DNA of 64,000 bases from an uncultured Actinomycetota bacterium (GCA_963824885.1 CAWGQN010000001.1:143482-207481), one strand, 5' to 3'; positions 3,466 through 36,568 are shown, counted from the stretch's first letter. Numbers and translations: made by a program. The notes: generated by a model from the letters alone, not told the origin.

Positions 3466-3603
3466 CAGCTCACCACACCCTCGACACTCCGACGTCCCCG
3501 CACGCCGCCGACACGCAAGCGGGTCGGCGGACCCACAAAAAGAACCCGCCGACCCCGACAACCGAGGTGATAACTTCCACACCCCCGGATCGGTTGTTAG
3601 TCC

Positions 3604-21314: not shown

Positions 21315-22343
21315 TCATCCTTCGCGCCGAGGCGGAAACGCGGCGGGCGGTGTCGTGGAAACCCCCCGCTTGCGATCCGCTCTCATCTTGATCAGACTCG
21401 CGACGGTTGCAACCGTCATGGTCACCATAATGACAGTCAACGAGGTCAAAGTGTCGATATCGGGAATCGAATCGACGTGGCGGCCACCGTTAATAAAAGG
21501 CAATTCATTGAGGTGAAGGGCGTGCATAACGAGTTTCACGCCAATGAACGCGAGGACAACGGCGATTCCGAACCGGAGGTATGTCAGGCTATCGAGAAGT
21601 CCTCCAAGCAAAAAATACAATTGGCGCAATCCCATCAGCGCGAAAACGTTCGCAGTGAAAACGATGAAGGGACTCTCGGTGATTCCGAAAATTGCCGGAA
21701 TCGAATCGAGCGCAAACAACATGTCTGCCGAGCCAAGCGCCGCAAAGACAATGAGCATTGGGGTGAAATACGTGCGACCGTTCGAGATCGTTCGAATCTT
21801 CATGCCGTCGAATTCGGATGAAATTCGACAACGATTGCGAATGAATCGAATGAAGCGGCTGTCGTTTTGTGCGTGCGCGCCAGGATCCGTGACCACTTGA
21901 TGCAACGCCGTGACGACGAGAAACACACCGAAAAGGTAGAAAATCCAGCTGAAGTGTGCGATCAGTTGGGCACCGAGGATGATGAAGATACCGCGCAACA
22001 CGAGGGCAATAATGATGCCGACCATTAACACGCGCTGTTGGAACAGCGACGGAACCGCAAACCTCGACATAATCACCACGAATACGAAAAGGTTGTCGAC
22101 ACTGAGGCTATATTCGGTGATCCACCCGGCCACGAATTGACCCGCGTAATCGGCGTTCGAGAAGACGAAAACGAGGATTCCAAACACGAGGGCGAGTGCA
22201 ACGTAAAACCCCGCCCAGACCGCGGATTCCCGCGTCGAGGGAACATGCGGGCGCTTGACTACCACGAGCAAATCGACAATGAGTACGAGCGCCAAGACCG
22301 CGCACGATACGACCTCAAACCAGAATGGCGTGACGAGGGCCAT
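21315..22343 (-). CDS. TerC-family integral membrane protein
   Basis: Multi-pass membrane protein with TEYSLSVDNLFVF and FALDSIPAIFG repeats typical of TerC/Alx. Confidence 0.9.
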   Translation of the reverse strand: MALVTPFWFEVVSCAVLALVLIVDLLVVVKRPHVPSTRESAVWAGFYVALALVFGILVFVFSNADYAGQFVAGWITEYSLSVDNLFVFVVIMSRFAVPSLFQQRVLMVGIIIALVLRGIFIILGAQLIAHFSWIFYLFGVFLVVTALHQVVTDPGAHAQNDSRFIRFIRNRCRISSEFDGMKIRTISNGRTYFTPMLIVFAALGSADMLFALDSIPAIFGITESPFIVFTANVFALMGLRQLYFLLGGLLDSLTYLRFGIAVVLAFIGVKLVMHALHLNELPFINGGRHVDSIPDIDTLTSLTVIMVTMTVATVASLIKMRADRKRGVSTTPPAAFPPRREG

Positions 22344-22567: not shown

Positions 22568-23914
22568 TTAGACCCGTCGTCGTCGAGCCCTCACGATCAA
22601 AATAAAACCGACCGCAGAAACGAGGGCGGCTATCGCAACGATTCCGAATATTTCCGCACCGGTCGATGCCAAGATATTCTGCGGGTCCGGGTTGGCCGGT
22701 ACCGATTGCGGCGTCGTTGTCGGTGGCACTTGCGGTGCCGCGGAAGGAGTTGGCGTTGGAGCAGGGCTCGGTGGGTTCTCCTCGGGTGTTGACGGGTTGG
22801 GGGTGTCCTTGTGCGATGGTGGGACCGGGGTTTCCTTTTCAGGGACGTCGGTACCCACCCCCGTGCCTCCGGTCGTGTTTTCGATTTCTCGCTTCACTTT
22901 TTTCTCTTGTTGATCGCCGGGAGTCGAATACGTAAACGTGTTCTCGTAGTCGATTCGAGGCTGCGATTCGGTGATCGTTGCGTTAATTGACGCGGTAATT
23001 GATTCGTAGGCGTCAATACTCTTCGGAACCTCGAACGTCACCTTTGTCTTGTCGCACGAAGCAACTTTTACCCTCCCGTCCGGCATCGCCGGGTCGTAAC
23101 CGGCGCCCAAATTCTTTTGATAATAGTGATAACTGGCGCTTGCGCAATCAAAGGCCATCCCACTGCCGCCGGGCAACTCGTCGGTGATGACGATCGGACC
23201 GGGTTGCTCGGTGTCCGTCACGGGAAGAGCCAGGCTCCACTCAATCGCCCGTTTCGAATCGGTTTCTCCCTCTTTTTTCGGCGACGCCCAGTACCCCCAT
23301 TTCATTGCGGGCCGGGTCTTATTGGGGGTGGATGGCTCCGATTGAGACGGCCCGCTCGAAGGATTACTATCTCCAATCGGCACCACGTGCCCATTGATAC
23401 TCTTCGTGACTTGTTTCTTCTCGTCGAGCGGTTGTTCCTCGACGCGACGAACAGAGAAATATCCGTCGCCGTGAACGTTCAGCGGATGGTCGGTCACGTA
23501 ATCGGTCAGAGTGAATGTTGCGGTCTTGTCATGCCACGTGCCCGTTGCAATTGCGCGACCGCCGCCGCCCTTTGGCGCCCCCGCGACTTGTTCTTTCAAG
23601 GTAATCGGAACGATGTCGGCGCTTTCCAGACCGTCCGGAAGAACGAGGGTAAACGTGTCGCCCGGTTGAGAGTGATCGGGAACCGCCCACGTGAATTTCA
23701 GTTCCGTCACCGAACCGTTGGGGCCCATTGCCGTCGTGGCTGGGAAACTCGTGATTGCCCCGTCGATTGTTGCCGCCGTGGCGGATTGAGGGCGAACGAT
23801 TGCGCCCGCCGATGCTAGAGAGACGGCTCCCACCGAAAGCGCCGCCATCAACGCCATCGACCGTTTCAAATGATCGGGACGTCGATTGTTTTTGCCCACG
23901 CCACTGTCGCGCAT
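22568..23914 (-). CDS. LAxTG-anchored MSCRAMM/collagen-binding-like surface adhesin (B1)
   Basis: RBS GAAGGAG before the MRDSG start and a signal peptide ...ALMAALSVGAVSLASAGA. The N-terminal Ig-like adhesin region has FTWAVPDHSQPGDTFTLVLP, followed by a Cna-A-like IEWSLALPV...ITDELP block and a Pro/Thr-rich stalk. The C-terminus is LASTG, then a hydrophobic helix and RARRRRV. Confidence 0.85.
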   Translation of the reverse strand: MRDSGVGKNNRRPDHLKRSMALMAALSVGAVSLASAGAIVRPQSATAATIDGAITSFPATTAMGPNGSVTELKFTWAVPDHSQPGDTFTLVLPDGLESADIVPITLKEQVAGAPKGGGGRAIATGTWHDKTATFTLTDYVTDHPLNVHGDGYFSVRRVEEQPLDEKKQVTKSINGHVVPIGDSNPSSGPSQSEPSTPNKTRPAMKWGYWASPKKEGETDSKRAIEWSLALPVTDTEQPGPIVITDELPGGSGMAFDCASASYHYYQKNLGAGYDPAMPDGRVKVASCDKTKVTFEVPKSIDAYESITASINATITESQPRIDYENTFTYSTPGDQQEKKVKREIENTTGGTGVGTDVPEKETPVPPSHKDTPNPSTPEENPPSPAPTPTPSAAPQVPPTTTPQSVPANPDPQNILASTGAEIFGIVAIAALVSAVGFILIVRARRRRV

Positions 23915-24082
23915 TGTGCTCCTTCTCATTCTGACTACCGTGTTCATCGAACGTGAACATCGTTCCGGTCGGATAGAGAAAGAGTCATCGCGGTCGTGAC
24001 GCAATAGGGCTTGTTTTCACCCTGTGCCGGTTAAAGAATCGCCCTCGAGGACCACAGTGTGACGCGCTTTAGAGGGTAAATA

Positions 24083-24122
24083 GGCCGGGCGGCACCATCA
24101 TCCCGAATGGTGCCGCCCGGCC
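24083..24122 (-). terminator. perfect 16-bp stem hairpin downstream of adhesin B2
   Basis: ggccgggcggcaccat / atggtgccgcccggcc with an 8-nt loop catcccga, 16 nt after the B2 stop. The same hairpin sequence recurs at 29871 and partly at 31035. Confidence 0.65.
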
Positions 24123-24137
24123 TCCAGCAGGAGCGCG

Positions 24138-25244
24138 TTAGACGCGGCGCCTGCGGGCCATGACCACCAGAATCAATCCGGCGGCAGCAACGAGTGCCGC
24201 GAGCCCAATGATGCCAATTACCTCAGCCCCGGTTGGTGCGAGCGCGGGAGTGGGAGGCTCGGCACTCGGAACGCCTGCGGGAACGTCGGCGGGAACGTCC
24301 GCGGGAACGACCGACGGGGTGTCGGACGACGCGGGAGTCGTTGTCTCTGGCGTCGTCGTAGCCGGCTGCTCGGGTGCGGCAGGTGGCGCGGTCGCGACCG
24401 TCGTCGGAACACGAGGAGCTTCCGGCGTCGGAGGCGCCACGGGAGTGGGCGTTGACTCAGACGGTGGCACGGGAACCGGTGTCGGTTCCGGGCACGGCTT
24501 CGCAACCGGGACGGGTACTGGTTCCGGGCACGGCTTCGCAACCGGGACCGGAGCGGGCTCGGGACGCGGCTCCGTCACGACGGGAACCGGTGCTGGTTCC
24601 GGGCACGGTTTCGCAACCGGGACGGGTGCTGGTTCCGGGCACGGCTTCGCAACCGGGGCCGGAGCGGGCTTCGGGCACGGAAAGGCCGGCCGAATCGGCG
24701 TCAGGCCCGCTCCTGAGAGTGGCGAGCCATACGTGTGCGTGCTCTCAATGAGAACCGGTGAATTTCCCGCGGTGAACTGATTCGGCGTGTACGTGACCTG
24801 CGAACCGCTATCGGTTCCTTCGCTCACGCGACACGTGGACCCGGTGGGAACACGCGTGGCTCCCGAGCCACCCGGAACGACCGGGACTCGGAGGACGCCG
24901 CCCGGCAATTCCGGGGTACACGACAATCGTGCGACGTAGCCGACGGGAAGAGTATCTGACGCCGTGCCGACAATCTGATCGCGGAATTCCACGGGCGCAA
25001 AGCTGGGACTCGACGAATCGTTGGTGACGACCGGCTTTTCGCCATTCGTGGCCGTCGACGAATTGGCTGAATGTGCGCTTGTCGCCGAATCCGCCGTCGT
25101 CTCAGCGGATGCCGACTGAACGGTTGCGAAAGCACCAATCGCTACGATTGACAAAGAGCCAATCGCAAGCGCCGCCTTCGGCATGACGGACCGTCTCGAA
25201 CGGTTGGGATTTCGATCGGTTTTTTCCACGCCGAATTTGCGCAT
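24138..25244 (-). CDS. LAxTG-anchored surface protein with one two-Cys domain and a Cys/Pro-rich repeat stalk (B2)
   Basis: RBS GGAGGA and a signal peptide ending SASA. One domain is LSCTPELPGG...GSTCRVSEG, followed by five KPCPEPAPVPVA-type repeats. The C-terminus is LAPTG, then a TM helix and ARRRRV. Confidence 0.85.
   Translation of the reverse strand: MRKFGVEKTDRNPNRSRRSVMPKAALAIGSLSIVAIGAFATVQSASAETTADSATSAHSANSSTATNGEKPVVTNDSSSPSFAPVEFRDQIVGTASDTLPVGYVARLSCTPELPGGVLRVPVVPGGSGATRVPTGSTCRVSEGTDSGSQVTYTPNQFTAGNSPVLIESTHTYGSPLSGAGLTPIRPAFPCPKPAPAPVAKPCPEPAPVPVAKPCPEPAPVPVVTEPRPEPAPVPVAKPCPEPVPVPVAKPCPEPTPVPVPPSESTPTPVAPPTPEAPRVPTTVATAPPAAPEQPATTTPETTTPASSDTPSVVPADVPADVPAGVPSAEPPTPALAPTGAEVIGIIGLAALVAAAGLILVVMARRRRV
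24484..24690. repeat. tandem 36-bp (12-codon) in-frame repeats
   Basis: The unit ggttccgggcacggcttcgcaaccgggacgggtact is repeated at 24484, 24520, 24595 and 24631, with diverged units between and after them. On the minus strand they encode KPCPEPAPVPVA. Confidence 0.9.
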
Positions 25245-25457
25245 GGGTATCCTCCACGGGTAGGGGGGTTAACGTGCTCAGGGATTTAAGCGACGTTCGG
25301 GTGATAACGAGGACGATTGTGCCAATCAATGACGCAAATGCAATGAGAACCTACCGGTGGCCTTTCGTGCCGACGAGCGCGCGAATACACCCGCGCAGAG
25401 AGCTCTCGTCCGCGCGTGGTCGCGGCGTGCCGGGACGTGACACGCGCCTCGTTCCCT

Positions 25458-25485
25458 GCGAATCCGGCGCAAAGGCCGGATTCGC
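25458..25485 (-). terminator. 11-bp stem hairpin downstream of the giant repeat gene
   Basis: gcgaatccggc / gccggattcgc with loop gcaaag, about 140 nt after the B3 stop. There is no clear U-tract, so terminator function is uncertain. Confidence 0.35.
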
Positions 25486-25624
25486 GGCACCAATTTCTGC
25501 TCGAGGCTCGAGACAGCGTGACCAAAGACACGCTTTGCATGAGCGCAAAATAATTGAAATAGGTCCCAGTTAATTTCACCCTCAAGTGGAGGATTTTTTC
25601 ACCCTCTACGCGTGATTGTTCATC

Positions 25625-28600
25625 CTAACGGGCCACGGTGGTGATGACTTTCACGCTCGTTTCCGGCAAGAAAACGAAGCTCTGGCTCGGCTCATACGAG
25701 ACGCTTGCCCCAGCCGGTGGGTTGAGCGCTTGAAGCGTGCACGTCGAACCGAGCGAAAAGAAGCCCGTGCTCAGCGCCGCGGAATTTGGCCCAAGCGCCA
25801 GTGTTTCCGACGCTACTGGACCACCGCTCGGCGCGGTGCACGTGAGACTCACGAGGGAGCTCGTTGACGGCGGCAACGGCGGCATCCCCTCGACCACGAC
25901 ATTGGTGACAAATATTTTTCGCGGCGCGTAGTAGTTCGCCACCGCTACGGTCACGGGAGAATCGCCCGCAAGAAACGTCGCGGGACTATACGAGACCGTA
26001 GCGTTTGGCGGCGGAGTCGATTCCACGACACCGCACATTGACCCACTCGTAACCTGTTGCACAACGGGCGTTCCATCGGCTGGCAACTCCACGGGGTAGG
26101 TCACTGCGGGACCGCCAGCTCCCGGCGTGCACGTCACCATCACCACGTAACCGCTTGGCGCTGGTTCGGGGGGAAATCCTTGGACAGCGGTGTGCAATTT
26201 TACCGGCGTTGTCGGAATCACCGTTGGATACGTGTTCACAATGGTCACGTGTGCGCACTGCGGACCGACCGTAAACGTCGCACCGGGTTCATACGTCACC
26301 GTCGCACCCGCGGGCGTCGGTTCATTGACGGTGCACGACGACCCCACCGCAATCCCGAGCGTCGAGACGACCGTCCCGTCCGCGGGAAGCGTCAACACCA
26401 CCGGATCAGTCGGCGTCCCCCCGGGAGGAGTACACGTCAACGTCGCACCATACGAATCAGGAACCGGAACCGGCGGCGTTCCCACGACAGACTTATGAAC
26501 ATTCACACTCACCGTCGACGGAACAAACGAGTTGAAAACCGTAACATGAGTGCCCTGCGGGCCCGCGACAAACGTCGCACCGGGATCATACGTGACCATC
26601 GCACCCGATGGCGGGTTCGGCTCGTCAATCGTGCACGACGACCCCACCGCAATCCCGAGCGTCGAGACCAAGGAACCATCAGCCGGAAGCGTCAACGCAA
26701 CTGGACCAGTCGGCGTCCCCCCGGGAGGAGTACACGTTAACGTCGCACCATACGAATCAGGAACCGGAACCGGCGGCGTTCCCACGACAGACTTATGAAC
26801 ATTCACACTCACCGTGGGCGTAACAAACGTGTTCACAATCGTTACATTCGCACCCTGCGGACCCGCGACAAACGTCGCACCGGGTTCATACGTCACCGTC
26901 GCACCCGCGGGCGGCATCGGTTCATCAACGATACAGAACGACCCCACCGCAATCCCCGGCGTCGAGACCACGGAACCATCAGCCGGAAGAGTCACGACGA
27001 CCGGTTTACCGGGAACACCCACCGGAGGAGTACACGTCAACGTCGCACCATACGATTCAGGAATCGGAACCGGCGGCGTCCCGACGACCGACTTATGGAG
27101 AGTCGCAGAAACCGTCGTGGGCGCATAAGAGTTCAGAATCGTCGCGTTCGCACCCTGTGGACCCACCGTAAACGTCGCACCGGGTTGATACGTGACGGTC
27201 GCACCCGCAGGCGGCATGGGTTCCTCAACGGTGCACGATGACCCCACCGCAATCCCCGGCGTCGAGACCACGGAACCATCAGCCGGAAGAGTCAACGCTA
27301 CCGGCTGACCAGGAACACCGAGCGGAGGAGTACACGTCAACGTCGCACCATACGATTCAGGAACCGGAACCGGCGGCGTCCCGTTAATCGCTTTATTAAT
27401 ATTCACGCTCACTGTCGGCGGCCCAAAGGTATTCGTTACCGTCACTATCGCACCGTGCGGACCAACGGTGAAGGTCGCGGAAGGGGCATACGTCACCGTC
27501 GCACCCGCGGGCGGAGAAGGCTCGTCAACCGTGCACGACGACCCCACGACAATCCCGGGTGTCGAGACGACAGTCCCATCCACCGGAAGACTCACCACCA
27601 CGGACTCGCCCGGAGTCCCACCGGGAGGAGTACACGTCACCGTCACCGCAAACGAATCGGGTACCGGAGTCGGGGGCATCCCCACGACCGCTTTGTGCGT
27701 GCCGACCGTCGCCGTCGCCGGCGCAAACGTATTCACAACCGTCACATCCGCACCCTGCGGACCCGCAACAAAAGTCGCACCGGGCTCATACGTCACGGTC
27801 GCACCCGCCGGAGGGTTCGGCTCGTCAATCGTGCACGACGACCCCACCGCAATTCCCGGCGTCGACACAACGGTCCCGTCCGCCGGAAGACTCACCACCA
27901 CCGGCTGACCAGGAATACCCACGGGAGGAGCACACGTCAACGTCACCGCATACGAATCAGGAACCGGAGTCGGGGGCGTCCCCACGACCGCCTTGTGACT
28001 GCTCACCGTGACTGTCGCGGGTCCAAAGTAGTTCTTGACAATCACATCGATTCCGTTCGTGCCCACGACAAAAGTCGCCCCGGGATCGAACGTCACAATT
28101 GCACCCGCCGGAGGGTTCGGCTCGTCAATCGTGCACGACGACCCCACGGCAATCCCCGCGGTTGACACGACTGTTCCATCTGCGGGAAGAGCCACCATGA
28201 CCGGGTCACTCGGAGTCCCGCCGGGAGGAGTACACGTCACGGTCGCCGCATACGAATCGGGTACCGGTGTCGGGGGTGTGCCCTCGACGGTTTTGTGCAT
28301 GCCTATCGTCGCCGTTGCCGGCGGAAAGGTATTTACTATCGTCACATCTGCGCCCTGCGGACCCGCATCAAAAGTCGCACCGGGCTCATACGTGACCGTC
28401 GCACCCGCCGGAGGAGAAGACTCCTCTATTGTGCACGACGAACCCACCTCAATCGAGGGCGTCGACACGACGGTCCCATCGGCCGGAAGCACGACTATCA
28501 CCGGCTCAGTCGGAATACCGATCGGAGGAGTACACGTCAACGTCGCCGCATACGAATCGGGTGCGGGAGTCGGGGGTGTCCCCACGACGGCCTTGTGGAT

Positions 28601-29740
28601 ACCGACGGTGACCGTGTCAGGTCCGAAGGAGTTGACGACCGTCGCGTCCGCACCCTGCGGTCCTACCGTAAACGTCGCACCGGGTTCATACGTCACGGTC
28701 GCGCCAACCGGAGGAGCAGGCTCGTCGAGCGTGCACGACGACCCCACCGCAATTCCCGGCGTCGAAACCACGGAACCATCCGCGGGAAGCGTCACGGCAA
28801 CGGGATCACCCGGAATCCCACCGGGGGGCGTACACGTCACAGTCGCAGCGTATGACTGAGGCGCTGGAACCGAAGGACTACCGACAATCGCTTTATGGAT
28901 ATTCACGCTCACCGTCGCCGGAACGAACGTATTCGTTACCGTGACAATGACGCCGTGCGGACCGACCGTAAAGGTTGCCCCAGGGGCATACGTCACGGTC
29001 GCATCGGCGGGAGGAGAGGGTTCGTCGGCGGTACACGACGACCCCACCGCAATTCCCTGCGTCGAGACCACGGAACCATCCGCGGGAAGAGTCAGGGCAA
29101 CGGGGTCACCTGGAACCCCACCCGGAGGAGTACACGTTAGCGTCGCACCGTACATTTCGGGCATGGGAACGGTCGGCGTTCCCACGACGACCTTATGCAC
29201 TCCCACGCTCACGGTCGTGACCACGACAATCGTCAACGAAACATCGCCGTTGATCAGATACGTTGTTGTCCCATTGGCGACGGGGTCATTGAGCGTGACG
29301 CCAAAAAAACCGGTCCCCGTGATATTGAGCGGTTGTGTCGTTACAAAGCTTGTCAACGTGCACGTCGCGGTTTGGCCAACCCACGCACAATTCGCCATCG
29401 CCGAGCCGTCGGCTGCCAAGAGATCGAACGCCTCTCCCCCGGTCGACGTCAGCTCGGTCGGCAGCGCGATGGTGAACGTGTCGCCCTCCGGAGTGTTATC
29501 CGGAACGCCCCACACAAAGTCGAGCTTGAAAGAGCTGCCGTTCGTCACCGATGGCGCCGTCGTGGACACGCTTGTGATTGCACCGGGTACGTCCGCCGCC
29601 CTCGCCGCGTGCGTTGGCACGAGTGCACCAATCGAGACAAGCGACAGTGTTGTCAACAACAACGCCGAAAGCGATGAAAGCCACCGCCTCATCCAGCCTT
29701 TTTCGACGGAAACGATCACATTACCGGCGGCGTTTTCCAT
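25625..29740 (-). CDS. giant secreted repeat protein (B3): adhesin-type N-domain plus 12 tandem two-Cys ~100-aa domains, with no C-terminal anchor
   Basis: Uninterrupted frame of 1371 codons from MENAAG (RBS GAGGGGGGA). The signal peptide is MRRWLSSLSALLLTTLSLVSIGALVPTHAARA. The N-domain FVWGVPDNTPEGDTFTIALP is homologous to B1. It is followed by 12 units of ...SYxATLTCTPPxGxPGxPVxxxLPADGxVVSTPGIAVGSSCTxxEPxPPAGATVTYEPGATF.... The protein ends ...VKVITTVAR with no LAxTG motif or TM helix. Confidence 0.9.
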   Translation of the reverse strand: MENAAGNVIVSVEKGWMRRWLSSLSALLLTTLSLVSIGALVPTHAARAADVPGAITSVSTTAPSVTNGSSFKLDFVWGVPDNTPEGDTFTIALPTELTSTGGEAFDLLAADGSAMANCAWVGQTATCTLTSFVTTQPLNITGTGFFGVTLNDPVANGTTTYLINGDVSLTIVVVTTVSVGVHKVVVGTPTVPMPEMYGATLTCTPPGGVPGDPVALTLPADGSVVSTQGIAVGSSCTADEPSPPADATVTYAPGATFTVGPHGVIVTVTNTFVPATVSVNIHKAIVGSPSVPAPQSYAATVTCTPPGGIPGDPVAVTLPADGSVVSTPGIAVGSSCTLDEPAPPVGATVTYEPGATFTVGPQGADATVVNSFGPDTVTVGIHKAVVGTPPTPAPDSYAATLTCTPPIGIPTEPVIVVLPADGTVVSTPSIEVGSSCTIEESSPPAGATVTYEPGATFDAGPQGADVTIVNTFPPATATIGMHKTVEGTPPTPVPDSYAATVTCTPPGGTPSDPVMVALPADGTVVSTAGIAVGSSCTIDEPNPPAGAIVTFDPGATFVVGTNGIDVIVKNYFGPATVTVSSHKAVVGTPPTPVPDSYAVTLTCAPPVGIPGQPVVVSLPADGTVVSTPGIAVGSSCTIDEPNPPAGATVTYEPGATFVAGPQGADVTVVNTFAPATATVGTHKAVVGMPPTPVPDSFAVTVTCTPPGGTPGESVVVSLPVDGTVVSTPGIVVGSSCTVDEPSPPAGATVTYAPSATFTVGPHGAIVTVTNTFGPPTVSVNINKAINGTPPVPVPESYGATLTCTPPLGVPGQPVALTLPADGSVVSTPGIAVGSSCTVEEPMPPAGATVTYQPGATFTVGPQGANATILNSYAPTTVSATLHKSVVGTPPVPIPESYGATLTCTPPVGVPGKPVVVTLPADGSVVSTPGIAVGSFCIVDEPMPPAGATVTYEPGATFVAGPQGANVTIVNTFVTPTVSVNVHKSVVGTPPVPVPDSYGATLTCTPPGGTPTGPVALTLPADGSLVSTLGIAVGSSCTIDEPNPPSGAMVTYDPGATFVAGPQGTHVTVFNSFVPSTVSVNVHKSVVGTPPVPVPDSYGATLTCTPPGGTPTDPVVLTLPADGTVVSTLGIAVGSSCTVNEPTPAGATVTYEPGATFTVGPQCAHVTIVNTYPTVIPTTPVKLHTAVQGFPPEPAPSGYVVMVTCTPGAGGPAVTYPVELPADGTPVVQQVTSGSMCGVVESTPPPNATVSYSPATFLAGDSPVTVAVANYYAPRKIFVTNVVVEGMPPLPPSTSSLVSLTCTAPSGGPVASETLALGPNSAALSTGFFSLGSTCTLQALNPPAGASVSYEPSQSFVFLPETSVKVITTVAR
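25628..29218. repeat. about 300-bp tandem coding repeats (12 units, the central ones nearly identical)
   Basis: Identical strings recur at exact 300-bp spacing. For example, accccaccgcaatcccgagcgtcgagac occurs at 26341 and 26641, and accccaccgcaatccccggcgtcgagaccacggaaccatcagccggaagagtca at 26941 and 27241. Confidence 0.9.
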
Positions 29741-29870
29741 TGTGTCCCCCCTCAGGACGAGGCCCTCGTACACACGTTGGACGCGGTACCTCAATCGAGA
29801 GACGACCAAACAACCAAATCGTGACGCCACGACGCAAAGAAGAATTTTACGAGCGGAGCGCTGCGCGTGA

Positions 29871-29912
29871 AAACCGGGCGGCACCATAATCCCGAATGGT
29901 GCCGCCCGGTTT
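29871..29912 (-). terminator. intrinsic terminator hairpin downstream of adhesin B4
   Basis: aaaccgggcggcaccat / atggtgccgcccggttt, a 17-bp stem with 8-nt loop aatcccga and flanking A/T tracts (TTTT after the stem on the minus strand). It lies 23 nt after the B4 stop. Confidence 0.75.
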
Positions 29913-29934
29913 GACCTTGTGCGTCAGAAACGAG

Positions 29935-30858
29935 TTATGCGTGGCGCCTTCGTCGCATCAATACGACAACGATTCCTAGGCCAACCGCAAGTGCACCCAA
30001 TGGAATCAATTGGCTGCCCGCATCACCGGACGCTGCTAGTTCAGGGGCCGCGGGAGCCTGCTCTACCGGTGCAGGTGCAGGTGCAGGTGCAGGTGCAGGT
30101 GCAGGTGCAGGTGCAGGTGCAGGCGAGGTATACGTATTTGTCACAACGACAAGCGTGTCTACGCCGAATTGCACGGTAACCGTGGGGCTCGGGGAGTATG
30201 TAACGGCGGCTCCCGCCGGCGGGCTGGTCTCGTTGACCGTGCACGATGAATCACTAAGAATTCCCGGAATCACCGTAGCAGGAGCCCCAGGAATAAGGGG
30301 CGGCACCGGAAAACTGATAGGCGCTTCCCCTGGGAGCGCGCACGACAGTGTCACCGCGTAGTCAGCAGGCGCCGGAGCCGGAGCCGTCCCCACGACAACC
30401 TTTTGTATGCCGATAGTCGTTGGCTCCCTGAAGGTGTTGGTCACAGTAACTTGAAAATCTGTGGTAGCCGTAAAGGTGGGGTGGTCAATAGTGACGGTCG
30501 CTCCCACTGGCGGATTTGGTTCGGTTGCCGTACACGACGACCCATCGACGAACCCGGGCACGGTCACCAATCCCCCTGTGGCCGAAAACACGAATGGAAC
30601 CGGCGTGCCTGGCGCGCCGCCCGGGGGAGTGCACGTCACAAGCACGGTAAAATTCGCCCCCGCAGGAGGTGGGCCGACAACTGTTTTCAACACGCCAATC
30701 GTGACGGGGGCCGCCTGCGCAAAAGCCGACTCGTGAACCCCGAGAATTCCTAACGGAACGAGCAACATGCCGGCGAGCGACAATGCGCCGAGTGACGCCA
30801 GAACTCGCCTCACGCGCGGCGCGGGCAATGCAGATTGGCCTTTACTAGTGTTTCGCAT
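29935..30858 (-). CDS. surface protein (B4) with two two-Cys domains, a (PA)9 stalk and a deviant LAASG sorting signal
   Basis: Start MRNTSKG is preceded by CCTGAGGGGGGAC, and the signal peptide ends AFAQA. The domains read ...TVLVTCTPPGG...GSSCTATEP... and ...AVTLSCALPGE...DSSCTVNETSPPAGAAVTY. The C-terminus has PAPAPAPAPAPAPAPAPAPV, then LAASG, a TM helix and RRRRHA. Confidence 0.85.
   Translation of the reverse strand: MRNTSKGQSALPAPRVRRVLASLGALSLAGMLLVPLGILGVHESAFAQAAPVTIGVLKTVVGPPPAGANFTVLVTCTPPGGAPGTPVPFVFSATGGLVTVPGFVDGSSCTATEPNPPVGATVTIDHPTFTATTDFQVTVTNTFREPTTIGIQKVVVGTAPAPAPADYAVTLSCALPGEAPISFPVPPLIPGAPATVIPGILSDSSCTVNETSPPAGAAVTYSPSPTVTVQFGVDTLVVVTNTYTSPAPAPAPAPAPAPAPAPAPVEQAPAAPELAASGDAGSQLIPLGALAVGLGIVVVLMRRRRHA
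30068..30121. repeat. perfect hexanucleotide microsatellite (GGTGCA)9
   Basis: Nine uninterrupted ggtgca units, in frame, encoding (Pro-Ala)9 on the minus strand. Confidence 0.95.
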
Positions 30859-30911
30859 CGTTCGTCCCCCCTCAGGGCAAAAAGCACTCACAATCATGTG
30901 GGCCACTCATC

Positions 30912-30939
30912 ACTTTAACATGAAAGAGCCAAAAATCAA
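30912..30939 (-). promoter_or_regulatory. candidate housekeeping-type promoter of B4 (TTGATT-N16-TAAAGT)
   Basis: On the minus strand the -35 TTGATT is at 30939-30934 and the -10 TAAAGT at 30917-30912. The same hexamer positions are conserved upstream of B5. Not experimentally supported. Confidence 0.4.
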
Positions 30940-31078
30940 CACATCCTGACACGGCACGGCAAATCGCGCGTTGACCCATTGCGTTGTTCCGTAGATTGTC
31001 AATCTACACGTCGTGGTTATGGTCGGCAACGCACCCCGAATGGTGCCGCCCGGTTTGACCTTGTACTTCACGGGCGCG

Positions 31079-32686
31079 CTATACGCGGCGCCTGCTGGTC
31101 ATGACCAACAGGACGATCCCCGTGCCGAAAAGAAACGCACCGAAAACACTGTGCGACGTGAGCGCATCACCGGCGGAGGCAAGAGCGAGTGCGGCAGGCA
31201 CGGTAGCGGGCCCTTCGAAAATGTTCGTCGCCTCAATTGTGACCGCCTGGTCAATCATGAAGTTCCCCTCGCCCGGATCACTCGTGATGACGACACCGGT
31301 ATCGAATGTGGTGTTCGAAATGATCGATTGGCTCGCGCCGTTGGTCACCGTCTCCGTCGCAAAGCAGTGGGAACCGCCGGGAAGCAAAAGGGGGTTCCCC
31401 GTCGGATCGAGCGCGGTTGCCTTTTCACCCGCACGAACGGTCAAGGTGTGGTGATAGAGCGGCAATCGTATCGTTCCTCCCGACGCTGACTCCGGCACGT
31501 CAATTTCGCACGTCACATCGAACGAGAACGAGGCTCCCTGCACCTCGGGCGAATTCGACTCGGCGCCCGACACGGTCTTTGCGACACTGACTGTGCCGGC
31601 CGAATAGTGATTGACGAAATCAATTTGGTTGCCGGTGCCCGCGATGATCGTCACCGGACCTGAGTTCGTCGGGGGAATACTCGGCCCAACCTCGCCAAAT
31701 AGCGGCGCCTCGAAAGCCGTGCACATGGAACCCACTGGCATTCCGCCGATCGGGTCGGAATGAATGATGGTGTCGACGAGCCCCGTACCTGCGATGCCGA
31801 CCGGGAAGTCCGTGAGCCCTGGAACTGGATCTCCAGTCGGTGACACGCATGTCAGAAAAAAATGAAACGTGTGGTGTGCGAAGGCTTGAGCGCCCAGCCC
31901 CGCGAGAGTCTTGGTGATGGTCATAGTAGAAAATTCATTTGTAACCGTCACGTCGGCGCCATTGGGTCCGACGATGAACGTCGCACTGGGGCTGTACGTC
32001 ACGGTCGCGCCCGCTGGTGGCGTGGTCTCATTGATCGTGCACGACGAACCAACGAAGATTCCCGGAGTTGACACGACGGTTCCGTCCGCAGGAAGTGACA
32101 CTTGGACCGCCGGAAGCGCGGTGCCCCCGGCCGGAGTGCAAATCAGCGTTGCATCGAATGTCGCCGGCACGGGCGATGTCGGTGTGGTGTTGACGAGCGC
32201 TTTTTGGGCCCTCACGGCGACTTGCGCGGGAAAGGTGTTGGTGATGTGCACGACGGCACCGTTCGACCCAACATTGAACGCGACCCCCGCGGTGATCGGA
32301 CTCCCATTCAAGTCGTACGTCACGACCGCACCCGCGGGCGGATTGGTCTCGACGATTGTGCACGATGAGTTAGCGGGGACACCACCCGGCACAAAAAAAA
32401 TCGTGCCGTCAGCGAGGACCGTCACCGATGTTACGGTCGGCGAACCACCGGGAGGAGTACACGTTAGAGTCGCCGTGTAGCTGGTTGGGGCCGGCGAGAG
32501 AGGCGTACCGCTGACTATTTTCTGTACTGCAAACGCAGGCCCCTGCGCAAAAGCCGACTCGTGAACCCCGAGAATTCCTAACGGAACGAGCAACAAGCCG
32601 GCGAGCGACAAGGCGCCGAGTGACGCCAGAAGCCGCCTAACGCGCGCCGCCCGCAAGGCAAATTGGCCTCTATTAGTGATACGCAT
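31079..32686 (-). CDS. surface protein (B5) with four two-Cys domains and a deviant LASAG sorting signal
   Basis: Start MRITNRG is preceded by CCTGAGGGGGGGAC. The signal peptide is near-identical to that of B4. Domains include TATLTCTPPGG...NSSCTIVETNPPAGAVVTY, ATLICTPAGG...GSSCTINETTPPAGATVTY, FFLTCVSP...GSMCTAFE and FDVTCEID...GSHCFATE. The C-terminus is LALASAGD, then a TM helix and SRRRV. Confidence 0.85.
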   Translation of the reverse strand: MRITNRGQFALRAARVRRLLASLGALSLAGLLLVPLGILGVHESAFAQGPAFAVQKIVSGTPLSPAPTSYTATLTCTPPGGSPTVTSVTVLADGTIFFVPGGVPANSSCTIVETNPPAGAVVTYDLNGSPITAGVAFNVGSNGAVVHITNTFPAQVAVRAQKALVNTTPTSPVPATFDATLICTPAGGTALPAVQVSLPADGTVVSTPGIFVGSSCTINETTPPAGATVTYSPSATFIVGPNGADVTVTNEFSTMTITKTLAGLGAQAFAHHTFHFFLTCVSPTGDPVPGLTDFPVGIAGTGLVDTIIHSDPIGGMPVGSMCTAFEAPLFGEVGPSIPPTNSGPVTIIAGTGNQIDFVNHYSAGTVSVAKTVSGAESNSPEVQGASFSFDVTCEIDVPESASGGTIRLPLYHHTLTVRAGEKATALDPTGNPLLLPGGSHCFATETVTNGASQSIISNTTFDTGVVITSDPGEGNFMIDQAVTIEATNIFEGPATVPAALALASAGDALTSHSVFGAFLFGTGIVLLVMTSRRRV

Positions 32687-32740
32687 CGTTCGTCCCCCCC
32701 TCAGGGCAAAAAGCACTCACAATCATGTGGGCCACTCATT

Positions 32741-32768
32741 ACGCTAACATGAACGAGCCAGAAATCAA
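32741..32768 (-). promoter_or_regulatory. candidate promoter of B5 (TTGATT-N16-TAGCGT)
   Basis: Positional homologue of the B4 element within the duplicated 5' block. Confidence 0.4.
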
Positions 32769-32824
32769 CACGTTCTGACACGGCACGACAAATCGTGAGT
32801 TGTCGCCCGCTCGCGCCTCGAAAT

Positions 32825-33667
32825 CTACGAGTCGTCCGCTGCGCGCGGTCCCACGGGTACTCCGCCGACGGAATTGCCGGTCGTTGGGTTCGCCGTCGTG
32901 GCGGCGTCGGAATTGGCCGGACACATCATCAGCCTCGAAAGCTCCGACCCCACGTTATTGGCTTCCACGAGCATGTGCGCGCACCGCTCGCACGATTTCA
33001 GGTGTTTTTCCACGCGCACGACGTCGCGTTTACCGAGTCCGTTTCGAACATACGAACCCAAATACTCGAGGGCCCAGTGACACTCCGTACCGCCCGGTGC
33101 CGACGCGAGGTGCGCTCGAATCCACGCTTGCCTCAACCCCTCGCGCGCCCGATAATTGAGCGCGGCAACCGCGTTCGGTTTGATGCCCAAGAGTGGCGCG
33201 ACCTTTTGCGGAGAGAGACTCTCCACCTCGCTGTACCACAGGGCTTGTTGCCATCGAGTGGGCAACAAGCGAAATGCGCGAATCGCGAACTCTCGATCAA
33301 TCGCAGCAGATCTCGTCTCGTCTGATAAGTGCGGATCGGGAACCTCCTCGATCGCGCCAATCGACGTGTCGTGCTTCGCGCGCGCCCACGCAATGGCCGT
33401 GTTTCTGACGGTCGTGAATAAGTACGGGCGAAATGCGAGCGTCGGACCACCACCATTTCGCATCGAGTGGAAGATTTTCGCAAACGCCTCGGAGACAAGA
33501 TCATCGGAATCAAACGACGTCGTATATGATCGTGCAACCGCGGTCGCGGCGCGCGCGTGACGGTGCCACAGCTCGCCAAATGCGCCACTGTCACCCCCGC
33601 GAGTCAGATCGATTAATTCGGTGTCACTGCGTATCACCGGAGGGCCGGTGGGCGCATCAGGGGCCAT
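32825..33667 (-). CDS. ECF-type sigma-70 family sigma factor with fused C-terminal zinc-finger anti-sigma (ZAS, zf-HC2) domain
   Basis: Region 2 reads DLVSEAFAKIF...RPYLFTTVRNTAIAW and region 4 reads LPTRWQQALWYSEVESLSPQKVAPLLGIKPNAVAALNYRAREGLRQ. These are followed by CHWALEYLG...VEKHLKSCERCAHMLVEA (H-x3-C-x2-C). No TM helix follows. RBS AAGGA. Confidence 0.85.
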   Translation of the reverse strand: MAPDAPTGPPVIRSDTELIDLTRGGDSGAFGELWHRHARAATAVARSYTTSFDSDDLVSEAFAKIFHSMRNGGGPTLAFRPYLFTTVRNTAIAWARAKHDTSIGAIEEVPDPHLSDETRSAAIDREFAIRAFRLLPTRWQQALWYSEVESLSPQKVAPLLGIKPNAVAALNYRAREGLRQAWIRAHLASAPGGTECHWALEYLGSYVRNGLGKRDVVRVEKHLKSCERCAHMLVEANNVGSELSRLMMCPANSDAATTANPTTGNSVGGVPVGPRAADDS

Positions 33668-33800
33668 TTGTGGTGGTTCCTTATTTTGTTAAAGGATCGT
33701 GTCTTCTGCGCGTCATGATGCCAGTTTGCCCACCGTTTGTCGATTGCGCACCGCCCATATTCCCGCGCGTTCCGAACAAAAATTCACCCCCGCACACGGG

Positions 33801-34625
33801 TCACGACCTCAGCGACGCTCCATGAAACACTCGATCCAACAGCGCGAAGAGTGGCGCGTCATACGTTGTCAGCCTGGCGCGCGTACTGACCTCGTTGTGA
33901 ACGCCGTCGCCACCAACCGGACCGGTGTGATTCACGTCGAAGTAACTCTGGACGCCCTCGGCCCAATACTCGCGCATTGCTGACCCGGCGTACGTATTCC
34001 TCCATCGACCAGCGGCGAGCGCCGCATTCCACGCGCTTCGCAGTTCAGGCATGAATGTCGCGTCATCGTATTGCAACGCCATTTCCATGAGCGTGTGGCC
34101 GAACTCGTGAACAAACGCGTTCTCACCGTTCAGGTTGTCCATGAGATTGGCCTCTGTTCCCACCGAAATCGGAAGGCTATCAGTCGCTCCCATTCCGCCC
34201 CAATACCTGTCATCGAGAGAAGTACCAAAAATCGCGTTCACTTCGGGAATATTGCTCATCCGCTCGCCGCGCGCCGTGATGACTACTCGAATATTGTGGC
34301 GGTTCAGCGAGGGAACCGGCCACGACGGATACGTCCATAGCAAGGTTCCCATCTCGTTCTTGGCGCGTATCAACGTCGCGTCGTCAACGCTGCGCGAACC
34401 AAGGACGGGTACGCCCCACGCGTCAATATATTTGCCGTAAAAGTTCGTGTCGAGTCGATATTTATCGGCAATATCCCGCGGTACGCCAGAAACAACGGAC
34501 TGGGCCGAGGTTTCAGACGTCGCGCTCGCGCTTATCGATGCGGGCACCGCAACCAGCGCACTCACCGAAAGAAAAGCTGTCAAGGCGAAAAGAGGTCGTC
34601 GATTTATAGCTGACATAAGAGTCAT
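33801..34625 (-). CDS. Tat-signal secreted zinc metalloprotease (HExxH ... ExxAE), paralog 1
   Basis: INRRPLFAL twin-Arg-like signal ending SASA. FVHEFGHTLME zinc motif, with Y and EYWAEGVQSYF about 40-47 residues downstream. The gluzincin / M34-like family assignment is tentative. Confidence 0.75.
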   Translation of the reverse strand: MTLMSAINRRPLFALTAFLSVSALVAVPASISASATSETSAQSVVSGVPRDIADKYRLDTNFYGKYIDAWGVPVLGSRSVDDATLIRAKNEMGTLLWTYPSWPVPSLNRHNIRVVITARGERMSNIPEVNAIFGTSLDDRYWGGMGATDSLPISVGTEANLMDNLNGENAFVHEFGHTLMEMALQYDDATFMPELRSAWNAALAAGRWRNTYAGSAMREYWAEGVQSYFDVNHTGPVGGDGVHNEVSTRARLTTYDAPLFALLDRVFHGASLRS

Positions 34626-34725
34626 CCAATCAATGCACTAGGTTCTTCGGGTCAACCGTGCAACGAGCACCCCATACTGTCTCACACATTCGAGAAAAAA
34701 GGAATACCCAATCCCCCCAAGAAGG

Positions 34726-35586
34726 TCACGTCCTCAGCGACGCTCCACGAAACACTCGATTAAGAAGCGCGAAGAGTGGCGGATCATACTCTTTCAGTCT
34801 GTCCCGCGTGTAAACGTCGTTATTAATGCCGTTTCCGCCAACCGGGCCGGGCCTACCGACGTTGAAATACGTCTGGACGCCTTCGGCCCAATACTCTTTC
34901 ATGGCCGAACCAGCGTACGTGTTATTCCATCGCCCGGTCGCATTCGCCGAATCCCACGCATTCTGCAATTCAGGAGAGAAGTTCGTATCAATGTGTGACA
35001 ACGACATGTCCATGAGGGTGTGGCCGAATTCGTGGACAAACACGTTCTCGTTGTCATAATTGTCGATAAGGTTCGCCTCTGTACCAACGGAGAGCGGAAC
35101 GCGATCCGTTGCTCCCATTCCACCCCAATACGCCTCGTCAAACGTTCTGCCACCACCCCACCGCGTGCGATCATTGAGAACCGAACCGTACTCGGCGTAT
35201 ACCTCGGGAATGTCGCTCATGTGCTCGCCTCGCGCCGCAAGTACGACTCGAACGTTGCGCCGGCTCAACTCGGGAACCGGCCACCAGGGGTACGTCCACA
35301 AGAGCGTTCCCATTTGAGTCCTGGCCCGCACGAGCGTCGCATCGTCGAGCCTGTTAGAGCCGAGAATGGGCACGCCCCACGCGTTAATGTACTTGCCATA
35401 CCAGTTCGTGTCGAGTCCGTATTTATCGGCAATTTCCTGCGGGACACGCGAAACGGAAGCCTTTTCCGAGAGCGCCGGATTCGCACTCGCGCTGAGCGCG
35501 GGGGGAACTGCGGCCAGAGCACCAACGGCACCTCCCGCGGCCAAGAAAACAAACGAGCGTCGATTCACTGTTGACATGACAGTCAT
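34726..35586 (-). CDS. Tat-signal secreted zinc metalloprotease (HExxH ... ExxAE), paralog 2
   Basis: VNRRSFVFLAAGG twin-Arg signal ending SASA, FVHEFGHTLMDM and KEYWAEGVQTYF. Colinear with paralog 1 over its full length. Confidence 0.75.
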   Translation of the reverse strand: MTVMSTVNRRSFVFLAAGGAVGALAAVPPALSASANPALSEKASVSRVPQEIADKYGLDTNWYGKYINAWGVPILGSNRLDDATLVRARTQMGTLLWTYPWWPVPELSRRNVRVVLAARGEHMSDIPEVYAEYGSVLNDRTRWGGGRTFDEAYWGGMGATDRVPLSVGTEANLIDNYDNENVFVHEFGHTLMDMSLSHIDTNFSPELQNAWDSANATGRWNNTYAGSAMKEYWAEGVQTYFNVGRPGPVGGNGINNDVYTRDRLKEYDPPLFALLNRVFRGASLRT

Positions 35587-35668
35587 CCAATCCGTGCACT
35601 AGGTTCTTCGGGTTAACCGTGCAACAAGCGCCCTTCTCTCACACCGGGGGAAGAAAAGCGGGATGATG

Positions 35669-35741
35669 TGACCCCAGCGGGATTCGAACCCGCGTTACCG
35701 CCGTGAGAGGGCGATGTCCTGGGCCGCTAAACGATGGGGCC
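35669..35741 (-). tRNA. tRNA-Glu (anticodon CUC)
   Basis: GGCCCCATCGTTTAGCGGCCCAGGACATCGCCCTCTCACGGCGGTAACGCGGGTTCGAATCCCGCTGGGGTCA folds as a cloverleaf by hand. The 7-bp acceptor stem has one G-U pair, the anticodon loop is CUCUCAC and the T-loop is TTCGAAT. CCA is not encoded. Confidence 0.92.
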
Positions 35742-35843
35742 GTGCTTGCAGCCCCACGAGTATCCCACGATCATCGGGAACAACCAAACTCGGCCATGCC
35801 GAGGGACCTTGCGCGTCCGCTCGGGCGGGTATTAGCTGACACC

Positions 35844-36482: not shown

Positions 36483-36496
36483 AAGCGCACGTGTTG

Positions 36497-36568
36497 CTGG
36501 GGTACCTGGACTCGAACCAAGAACAACTGAACCAGAATCAGCCGTGTTGCCAATTACACCATACCCCA
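36497..36568 (-). tRNA. tRNA-Gln (anticodon CUG)
   Basis: TGGGGTATGGTGTAATTGGCAACACGGCTGATTCTGGTTCAGTTGTTCTTGGTTCGAGTCCAGGTACCCCAG has a cloverleaf with anticodon loop UUCUGGU and T-loop TTCGAGT. Confidence 0.92.

Follow-up and report, generated by a model that had tools for sequence, protein, structure and literature searches.

A candidate cell-envelope locus of adhesin-type proteins, a sigma-ZAS fusion, and predicted M34-fold proteases in an uncultured lineage of the Microbacteriaceae

Two secreted proteases of Firmicutes act on adhesins that are encoded beside them. Specifically, the Pro-Pro endopeptidases (PPEPs) PPEP-1 and PPEP-2 cut sortase-anchored adhesins at P/P-x-P, between the prolines, and their substrate genes are adjacent, which gives the described pairs PPEP-1/CD2831 and PPEP-2/VMSP; PPEPs have been reported only in the Clostridiales and Bacillales (PMC8610288). 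In actinobacteria, the extracytoplasmic function (ECF) sigma factor groups ECF48, ECF52, and ECF53 are fused to a ZAS anti-sigma domain, which is followed by a transmembrane helix and an ectodomain, and proteolysis is considered to be what activates them (PMC5826349, PMC8999054). A further kind of surface module, DUF5979, is a CnaB-like domain with an intramolecular isopeptide bond and a triad of Lys (first strand), Glu, and Asn (last strand) (2025 survey, PMC12617251). Here we analyze 64,000 nt of DNA from an uncultured actinobacterium (the window), in which a block at 22568-35586 holds eight open reading frames (ORFs), all on the minus strand and named p1 to p8 in coordinate order: five surface proteins (p1 to p5), a sigma-ZAS fusion (p6), and two predicted zinc metalloproteases (p7 and p8). 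Our ORF calls place all eight genes where an earlier note on this DNA had put them. That note did not recognize the combination as a described system, yet the two PPEP-adhesin pairs are described analogs (PMC8610288).

Our results favor, with a probability of roughly 0.55, a lineage-specific cell-envelope locus that was duplicated in place and that combines adhesins, a sigma-ZAS switch, and M34-fold proteases. Adhesins with CnaB stalks, ECF-ZAS fusions, and proteases of the M34 fold are all familiar types, and each occurs here in a variant of its usual form. According to this reading, a set of adhesin-type proteins with CnaB stalks would be displayed by way of sorting signals, while p3 would be secreted without an anchor. 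The ZAS helices of p6 would hold sigma2 and sigma4 closed and inactive until the zinc site is disturbed, as by thiol oxidation, or the tail is degraded, and the freed sigma factor would then drive the neighboring DUF5979 genes from AAC-N16-CGT(C/T) promoters. The p7 and p8 proteins, exported by the twin-arginine translocation (Tat) pathway, would cut proline-rich sequences, as the domain fusions of their relatives suggest; their substrates could be the Pro-rich stalks of the neighboring adhesins, in a PPEP-like release, or exogenous proteins rich in proline or hydroxyproline. Functional coupling is plausible for the sigma factor and the adhesins and unproven for the proteases. We consider the chances even that p6 controls the DUF5979 adhesin genes, and we doubt that p7 and p8 shed the neighboring adhesins, a role suggested by analogy with the PPEPs.

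The evidence for a surface function comes from the architecture of p1 to p5. When all eight proteins were searched against Pfam with hidden Markov models (HMMs), a check that the earlier note had proposed, there were matches for p1, p3, p4, p5, and p6, none for p2 or p7, and a subthreshold one for p8. The p1 gene (22568-24004; likely start MRDSGV at 23914, preceded by GAAGGAG) encodes a signal peptide, a Big_8 domain (MSCRAMM-type Ig, E=1.4e-10), a second, uncharacterized domain, a Pro-rich stalk containing NPPSP, and the sorting motif LASTG. The p2 gene (24138-25244) encodes a signal peptide, one two-Cys domain, about six copies of PVAKPCPEPAPV in 36-bp units at 24470-24680 with one Cys per unit, a Pro-rich stalk with the motifs APPTP and EPPTP, and LAPTG. 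It has no Pfam family match; its two-Cys domain is similar to DUF5979 by eye, but we rejected that assignment since both Pfam and our own repeat HMM were negative. The repeat cysteines of p2 are candidates for inter-chain disulfides.

The remaining three surface proteins belong to the DUF5979 family (PF19407), with Pfam E values of 3e-111 for p3, 3e-42 for p5, and 7e-22 for p4. The largest, p3 (25625-29740), is 1371 aa long when translated from the start MENAAG at 29740, although its ORF reaches 29887, and it consists of a signal peptide, a Big_8 domain, and 12 tandem DUF5979 domains. Pfam marks 11 stretches, our own HMM resolves 12 repeats, every one of them exactly 100 aa long, and Tandem Repeats Finder reports a 300-bp period with 9.9 copies. 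The Lys/Glu/Asn positions (HK...(D/E)EP...VxN) are retained in repeats 1 to 10 and absent from repeats 11 and 12, and every repeat has two cysteines. Membership of p3 to p5 in DUF5979 is thus indicated by Pfam together with the triad in p3, and isopeptide bonds are predicted. Just as the earlier note had it, p3 is an anchorless repeat protein that ends right past its last domain; a frameshifted anchor was ruled out because the 380 bp downstream are noncoding, AT-richer promoter DNA of p2. The p4 gene (29935-30858; ORF to 30906, likely start MRNTSKG) encodes a signal peptide, two DUF5979 domains, a (PA)9 stalk specified by (GGTGCA)9 (9.3 copies, 30068-30123), and the variant motif LAASG, and p5 (31079-32686; ORF to 32716, likely start MRITNRG) has a signal peptide, two clear and two divergent DUF5979 domains, and the variant LASAG. 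The coding repeats in the stalks of p4 and p2 are in frame and are candidates for length variation. About 10 to 20 nt 5' of the starts of p3, p4, and p5 (29740, 30858, and 32686, minus strand), the ribosome-binding regions contain a run of six or seven G residues, CCTGAGGGGGG(G)AC; the one-G difference among these paralogs could reflect slippage and permit variable expression.

Exactly four sorting signals occur in the window, all of them inside the block (p1, p2, p4, and p5), with a hydrophobic stretch and then an RRRR tail behind each motif. LAxTG is the motif of class E sortases. By the substrate criterion for that class (LAxTG, a hydrophobic segment, and a basic tail), p1 and p2 fit and p4 and p5 are variants, so that the four sortase-type proteins of the earlier note do have their C-terminal signals, although LAASG and LASAG depart from the canonical form. 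The note's statement that the window encodes no sortase agrees with our search, in which the TLxTC motif was absent from all stop-to-stop ORFs of at least 80 aa. We infer that a class E sortase acts on these signals and that its gene lies outside the window, in another part of the genome. The arrangement of a head domain, an isopeptide-type stalk, a Pro-rich linker, and a wall anchor corresponds, as predicted from the domains, to the layout of fibrillar adhesins.

The p6 gene (32825-33667) joins the sigma2 and sigma4 regions of an ECF sigma factor to a ZAS zinc finger. Pfam and NCBIfam matches in one polypeptide (Sigma70_r2, Sigma70_r4_2, and zf-HC2 at E=1.5e-9; TIGR02937 at 59.3 bits against a cutoff of 42.9) bear out the fusion that had been proposed in the earlier note. 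The zinc ligands C196 and H222-x3-C226-x2-C229 follow the C...H-x3-C-x2-C pattern of ZAS anti-sigma domains; H222, C226, and C229 do not vary across an alignment of 46 sequences, at least 90% of which also have C196. Homologs are widespread in the Actinomycetota. Among 79 metagenomic loci with relatives that are 45 to 62% identical to p6, nearly all of the ORFs are 500 to 1236 aa long, and these long relatives run from sigma and ZAS through a transmembrane helix and a low-complexity (Pro/Ala-rich) spacer to Ig-like Big_13/Big_6 domains. The p6 protein ends at residue 280 without a transmembrane helix, and its tail (residues 250 to 280) is predicted to be disordered, with predicted local distance difference test (pLDDT) scores below 50 at 250-269. 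That tail reads 'SRLMMCPANSDAATTANPTTG...' and 'SRLMMCPANSD' where the relatives have the helix 'LALVLLPLAAG...', and p6 and its two nearest relatives (267 to 280 aa; the relatives are 267 aa long and 78 to 80% identical) stop just past the ZAS domain. From this pattern, p6 appears to be a truncated, membrane-less form of the longer architecture whose former transmembrane segment has decayed. We rejected fission of an ancestral fusion into p6 and p5, given that the relatives' ectodomains are Big_13/Big_6 and not DUF5979. In an AlphaFold2 model of p6 (mean pLDDT 84.9), sigma2, sigma4, and the three ZAS helices are confident, although the predicted template modeling score (pTM) of 0.52 leaves the packing of the domains uncertain. 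Foldseek matches to the model are ECF sigma factors, and the root mean square deviation is 9 to 10 Å to anti-sigma-bound structures versus 18 to 24 Å to those bound to RNA polymerase, which lends slight support to a closed, auto-inhibited state of p6. Many p6 homologs are annotated as 'partial' and lie at contig ends (for example, in Agromyces allii; also locus L086); low-complexity or repetitive C-terminal extensions, or repetitive neighbors, probably break short-read assemblies there.

The tandem paralogs p7 (33801-34625; identical to database protein P0002) and p8 (34726-35586) are 63% identical to each other. Both have the HEFGH motif and an N-terminal RR (NRRPLFAL in p7, NRRSFVF in p8), which upholds the earlier description of them as a tandem pair of Tat-signal HExxH proteins. 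In p8 the motif lies at residues 185-189 and is followed by Tyr224 and Glu231 (Y-x6-E), and none of the residues H185, E186, H189, Y224, and E231 varies among 30 family sequences. An insert of 12 aa in p8 (TRWGGGRTFDEA, residues 141-152), predicted to be disordered (pLDDT <50), is absent from p7 and from all of the 28 other aligned members. Neither Pfam nor NCBIfam has a family for the two proteins: p7 has no Pfam match at all, p8 scores 21.1 bits against ATLF (PF07737), below the gathering cutoff of 27.4, and phmmer searches of the Protein Data Bank (PDB) gave no sequence match for either, PPEPs included. With an AlphaFold2 model of p8 built from a 30-sequence alignment (pLDDT 86), the top 17 Foldseek matches in the PDB were all PPEP-3, PPEP-2, or PPEP-1 (E 2e-5 to 2.5e-3, probability 1.00), followed by anthrax lethal factor. 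Template modeling scores against the PPEPs were about 0.43 on the query and 0.52 to 0.64 on the target, at an identity of 12 to 16%, so that specificity is not transferable. Furthermore, the family profile aligns HEFGH, Tyr224, and Glu231 to the HEFGH, Tyr, and Glu of anthrax lethal factor (E=0.008), the latter two being Y728 and E735; the equivalents in PPEP-1 are Y178 and E185. Against PPEP-3 the profile scores E=0.33, short of a sequence-level hit. The sequence criterion for the PPEP family is a BLAST E value below 1e-25 to PPEP-1 or PPEP-2 (van Leeuwen et al.), and the family of p7 and p8 falls outside it. On the strength of the model, we assign this family a predicted M34-fold catalytic domain.

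This protease family is large. At E<=1e-3 it comprises 4,797 representatives of 50%-identity clusters (2,900 at E<=1e-10), spanning the Actinomycetota, Bacteroidota, Planctomycetota, Verrucomicrobiota, and myxobacteria, and its actinobacterial members carry RR signal peptides. The members named in this analysis are annotated as 'hypothetical', and the family appears to be a so far unannotated branch of the M34 fold. The ATLF threshold is passed by 6 of 61 multidomain members, and in the one that was checked (P0320, 41 bits) the match lies inside the homologous domain. Among the same 61 proteins, the domain is fused to VHL-beta (6), to the DPP-IV N-domain with S9 (4), and to cyclophilin (3). 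Because these partners are modules that handle proline or hydroxyproline, a proline-directed activity is suggested for the family. Ricin and dockerin domains are further fusion partners, and some proteins have two to four tandem copies of the domain; one member is of metazoan type and combines TSP1, Ig, ShK, and zona pellucida domains. P0343, P0346, P0394, and P0324 are among the proteins with these various architectures.

Transcriptional signals in the block point to more than one unit of expression. Hairpins resembling intrinsic terminators follow p2 (24085-24120, CCGGGCGGCACCAT...ATGGTGCCGCCCGG; ΔG -40.9 kcal/mol, z -6.8) and p4 (29874-29909, then TTTT; ΔG -35.2 kcal/mol, z -7.7), and the terminator hairpin element occurs in three copies in the window versus zero expected. 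Because genes have separate promoters and are parted by strong terminator-like hairpins, the block appears to consist of several transcription units and not of one operon; a single transcription unit would be at odds with hairpins at two junctions and a promoter for each gene. AAC...CGT is the usual signature of ECF promoters. A motif of this type upstream of p3, GTCAC-N16-CGTCT (29800-29825), is its sole match in the window, and it aligns with GTAAC-N16-CGTCTC 5' of the DUF5979 gene of a related locus, L090, and with AGAAC-N16-CGTTC 5' of p5, which overlaps the sigma-A-like hexamers TTGATT-N16-TAGCGT (32751-32777). A common ECF promoter for all eight genes was rejected, as AAC-N16-CGT stands at aligned positions only for p3 and p5 (and in L090); scans of the window with GGAAC/GAAC...CGT(C) gave matches scattered through coding DNA. 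The p6 gene has a sigma-70-like promoter, TCGACA-N17-TGgCATCAT (33715-33743), that is conserved in loci L002 and L090.

The protease genes have a different upstream element. A 30-nt palindrome (TGCAC...GTGCA) lies directly 5' of p7 (34634-34663, TTGCACGGTTGACCCGAAGAACCTAGTGCA) and again 5' of p8 (35595-35624, minus strand), with the consensus TTGCACGGTT(A/G)ACCCGAAGAACCTAGTGCA, and it recurs 5' of the L002 protease (~1435-1465) and before a protease remnant in L090; the adhesin genes are without it. The element reads as a putative promoter/operator, TTGCAC-N17-TAGTGC adjoining the ATG; it may drive a leaderless mRNA and overlap with an operator. An RNA leader or riboswitch for the proteases was rejected: the palindrome is no stabler than shuffled sequences (z -0.4 and -1.3), and Rfam found tRNAs only.

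Relatives allowed us to follow the site across lineages. The block is bounded by tRNA-Glu(CTC) (35668-35741, minus strand), whose 3' end faces the block 81 bp from p8; tRNA-Gln (36496-36568) lies beyond. One locus (L001) was left out as a relative because it and the window come from a single organism (P0002 = p7 and P0080 = p6 at 100%); P0200 is another 100% database match from this organism's own contig. The metagenome-assembled genome GCA_023264945.1 has tRNA-Gln, a metallo-beta-lactamase (MBL) fold ORF, tRNA-Glu, one protease, and the sigma-ZAS gene. L090 (JGI 3300027379, Ga0209842_1002794) has tRNA-Glu, a protease remnant, the sigma-ZAS gene (78%), and a DUF5979 gene that is a colinear ortholog of p5 (33 to 41%); its remnant (914-1252) is a deletion scar in which the upstream element is followed by the last ~24 codons ('LKEQDPLLFALFDRVFRGSALK'; …LKEQDPLLFALFDRVFRGSALKLR). 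Protease copy number in the lineage is therefore two in the window, one in the assembled genome, and zero in L090. In Leifsonia aquatica, Agreia sp. Leaf335, and the Microbacteriaceae contig L092, the order gltX-oxidoreductase-tRNA-Gln is followed by unrelated and mutually different genes, with no tRNA-Glu and no homolog of a block protein at the site. Since the block is absent from these three, it is accessory at the family level, in keeping with how the earlier note had classed it, and because they carry unrelated, differing genes there, the site is a variable region of the family. Within the lineage of the window, the genes that now occupy it are stable.

The block seems to have grown in place by tandem duplication. 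Three features lead us to this view: p4 and p5 share 91% identity over ~260 nt that cover promoter and signal peptide, the module of sorting signal plus terminator hairpin is present in three copies, and p7 and p8 are the paralogs described above.

Beyond the lineage, the company kept by these genes is uneven. Across 80 protease loci of other organisms, no neighbor was a DUF5979/Big_8 protein or a related sigma-ZAS protein; one of these loci (L045) had a weak generic sigma-factor match only, and a clear LPxTG-type protein occurred in the flanks of just one locus, 7 kb away (1/80). Conversely, no protease was found next to the other sigma-ZAS genes (0/79), of which four adjoin LAxTG adhesins with Big_8, DUF5979, SdrD_B, or SpaA-type domains. 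By its own test of co-occurrence, the 'self-contained module' of the earlier note thus fails for the proteases, given also their copy numbers within the lineage: the association of sigma-ZAS genes with LAxTG adhesins recurs elsewhere, and that of proteases with either does not.

Several observations weigh against the locus as we read it. The proteases are without comparable neighbors in other organisms, are dispensable in the lineage, as the L090 deletion remnant attests, and are too distant from the PPEPs for their specificity to be carried over. Adhesin adjacency is limited to 4 of the 79 related sigma-ZAS loci, and the domain packing in the p6 model is uncertain. The ECF-like motif is known from three upstream regions that are homologous to one another, is degenerate at p4, and was not found 5' of p1, p2, p6, p7, or p8, while sigma-A-like hexamers precede p4 and p5 and the p6 promoter is sigma-A-like too. 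P-P-x-P occurs in the stalks of p1 and p2 only and is absent from p4 and p5. Finally, all of the functional links within the block are inferred. Nevertheless, the adjacency of sigma-ZAS and DUF5979 genes is found again in L090, which argues for control by the sigma factor.

An alternative, which we consider unlikely while giving it the most weight among the alternatives, is that the neighbors are incidental, three unrelated units in a variable stretch downstream of tRNA genes: the adhesins would be expressed from housekeeping promoters, p6 would have its regulon elsewhere, and p7 and p8 would degrade exogenous proteins rich in proline or hydroxyproline, such as plant extensins or collagen-like proteins, for nutrition or host interaction. 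The region beyond gltX and tRNA-Gln is wholly different among Microbacteriaceae, genes in the block are separated by their own promoters and terminators, and those of p4, p5, and p6 have sigma-A-like hexamers, all of which speaks for chance neighbors. Likewise, the protease family extends across phyla without adhesin neighbors, and its Ricin, VHL-beta, dockerin, and DPP-IV fusions point to extracellular substrates. Yet the sigma-ZAS and DUF5979 genes have stayed adjacent in L090 at ~78% identity of the sigma factor, even though the adhesin is only 33 to 41% identical; the ECF-type motif lies at the aligned position 5' of DUF5979 genes in two organisms; and members of the sigma-ZAS family are repeatedly either fused to Ig-like surface domains or encoded beside proteins that have them. 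If the neighbors were incidental after all, the locus would be an ordinary, fast-evolving adhesin array.

Somewhat less likely still is the opposite extreme, in which the full module of the earlier note is given sharper form by the PPEP analogy: a counterpart of PPEP-1/CD2831 (C. difficile) and PPEP-2/VMSP (P. alvei) in which p6 controls the adhesins and p7 and p8 cut their Pro-rich stalks to release cells. The analogy draws on the closest solved folds, which are those of PPEP-1, -2, and -3, on the fact that PPEP substrates are sortase-anchored adhesins encoded by adjacent genes (PMC8610288), on NPPSP in p1 and APPTP and EPPTP in p2 near the sorting motif, on the proline-handling fusions in the protease family, and on the adjacency of protease, sigma, and adhesin genes in two organisms of the lineage. 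Against it stand the absence of the combination from the 80 protease loci and 79 sigma-ZAS loci examined, the loss of the protease from L090 with retention of the sigma-ZAS gene and the adhesin, and the linkers of p4 and p5 without P-P-x-P. In addition, the palindromic element of the proteases is not common to the adhesin genes, a riboswitch of the PPEP-1 type was not found by Rfam in the window, and identity to the PPEPs is very low.

Two further explanations carry little weight. A mobile genomic island integrated at tRNA-Glu is very improbable. The block does adjoin the 3' end of the tRNA gene and is absent from other genera; it has no integrase or mobility gene, its eight ORFs account for it with a largest gap of 380 bp, a search for direct repeats of the tRNA 3' end was negative, and its GC content (0.54 to 0.67, versus ~0.60 outside) shows no step. 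Moreover, tRNA-Glu itself is in a lineage-specific segment, other genera having tRNA-Gln only, and the order of tRNA-Glu, protease, sigma-ZAS, and DUF5979 genes is kept at the site in the nearest relatives, with GltX identities of 79 to 81%. A locus for a pilus that a sortase assembles, with DUF5979 proteins as its pilins, is scarcely credible: Gram-positive pilins typically have CnaB-like isopeptide domains and sorting signals (PMC12617251), but the TLxTC motif search found no class C or other sortase in the window, the largest protein (p3) has no sorting signal, and a Big_8 head on a long stalk of identical repeats is the layout of a fibrillar adhesin, as opposed to the two to four domains of a pilin.

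The surroundings of the block are those of an actinobacterial chromosome with ~60% GC, and the backbone genes that the earlier note had listed are present by Pfam. Before the block lie smc, recG, thiL, gpsA, murA, leuD, leuC, a PP2C phosphatase gene, and terC (21315-22343); beyond tRNA-Gln follow an FAD oxidoreductase gene, gltX, a Rv2993c-like gene, ilvE, leuB, serA, ilvC, ilvB, and ilvD. An Rfam scan of the window found the two tRNAs and nothing else. Because GltX is at most 71 to 72% identical to that of named Microbacteriaceae (Leifsonia) and 79 to 81% identical to that of two uncultured relatives, the host appears to belong to an undescribed lineage of the Microbacteriaceae. Between the two tRNA genes, on the opposite strand, is an MBL-fold ORF (Lactamase_B_3, E=3.9e-10; 35703-36482, plus strand) whose start, as drawn, overlaps tRNA-Glu; the same gene lies between both tRNAs in L002 and L090. 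Elsewhere in the window, a 781-aa ORF (1237-3582, minus strand) has several hydrophobic segments and no Pfam match at E<=1e-5. The 1-kb bin at 58001-59000 has an unusually strong strand asymmetry (GC skew -0.32, AT skew +0.29), and a 336-aa ORF in it (57580-58590, minus strand) resembles ordinary protein sequence.

Our findings have implications beyond this locus. If the proteases do cut proline-rich stalks, the PPEP concept would be extended from two orders of Firmicutes to the Actinomycetota, and several thousand uncharacterized proteins, from Bacteroidota to Planctomycetota, would gain a first functional handle. The VHL-beta, DPP-IV, and cyclophilin fusions give a testable prediction of specificity. 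The p6 protein, for its part, is a naturally reduced form of the ECF48/52/53 fusions, which are poorly understood, and it could show whether a fused ZAS domain alone suffices for auto-inhibition. The most far-reaching possibility is that p7 and p8 represent a proline-directed M34 branch recruited in this lineage as shedding proteases for the neighboring LAxTG adhesins and that p6 is a cytoplasmic, redox- or proteolysis-gated switch of adhesin expression, which would make the locus an independent adhesion and release system of the PPEP-1/CD2831 kind in Actinomycetota; we judge this improbable.

How the locus compares with known systems differs from part to part. The surface proteins resemble fibrillar adhesins and MSCRAMM-like proteins in their Big_8 head, their tandem, near-identical CnaB-like stalk domains with Lys, Glu, and Asn, and their sortase signals, and differ from them in that the largest member, p3, has no anchor and a Cys pair is conserved in each stalk domain. 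In its actinobacterial origin and its sigma2-sigma4 regions with a fused zf-HC2 domain (H-x3-C-x2-C), p6 is like ECF48, ECF52 (SCO4117), and ECF53, and its relatives continue, as ECF52 does, into a transmembrane helix and, past a Pro/Ala-rich spacer, an extracellular domain (PMC5826349). The p6 protein lacks the helix, the Pro-rich spacer, and the ectodomain, and the ectodomains of its relatives are Ig-like (Big_13/Big_6), unlike the carbohydrate-binding module of SCO4117. With SigR-RsrA and SigH-RshA, in which a soluble ZAS protein serves as a redox switch, p6 shares a cytoplasmic set of ZAS ligands and the lack of a membrane segment, whereas it has sigma and ZAS in a single polypeptide. In Streptomyces, the ECF sigma factor BldN drives expression of the chaplins, LAxTG surface proteins anchored by class E sortase. 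The parallel with our locus is an ECF sigma factor tied to proteins with LAxTG signals; the chaplins are small and amyloid-forming and have no CnaB stalk, and BldN carries a pro-sequence and has its anti-sigma factor, RsbN, as a separate protein.

The catalytic domain of anthrax lethal factor (ATLF) shares its aligned HEFGH, Tyr, and Glu with the protease family, several members of which exceed the ATLF gathering score, while p7 and p8 have none of the toxin's accessory domains. Relative to PPEP-1 (Zmp1, C. difficile), PPEP-2 (P. alvei), and PPEP-3 (G. thermodenitrificans), which belong to MEROPS family M34, p7 and p8 are ~50 to 90 residues longer, carry a Tat instead of a Sec signal, and belong to a family of many phyla; moreover, the sigma gene separates them from their candidate substrates, and by Rfam the window has no cyclic di-GMP riboswitch. 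What they have in common with the PPEPs is the type, that of a small, secreted, single-domain zinc endopeptidase, along with the HExxH and Tyr-x6-Glu of p8, its best structural match, and a location near genes for sortase-anchored adhesins with Pro-rich linkers, which in this block lie 1 to 12 kb from the proteases across the gene for the sigma factor.

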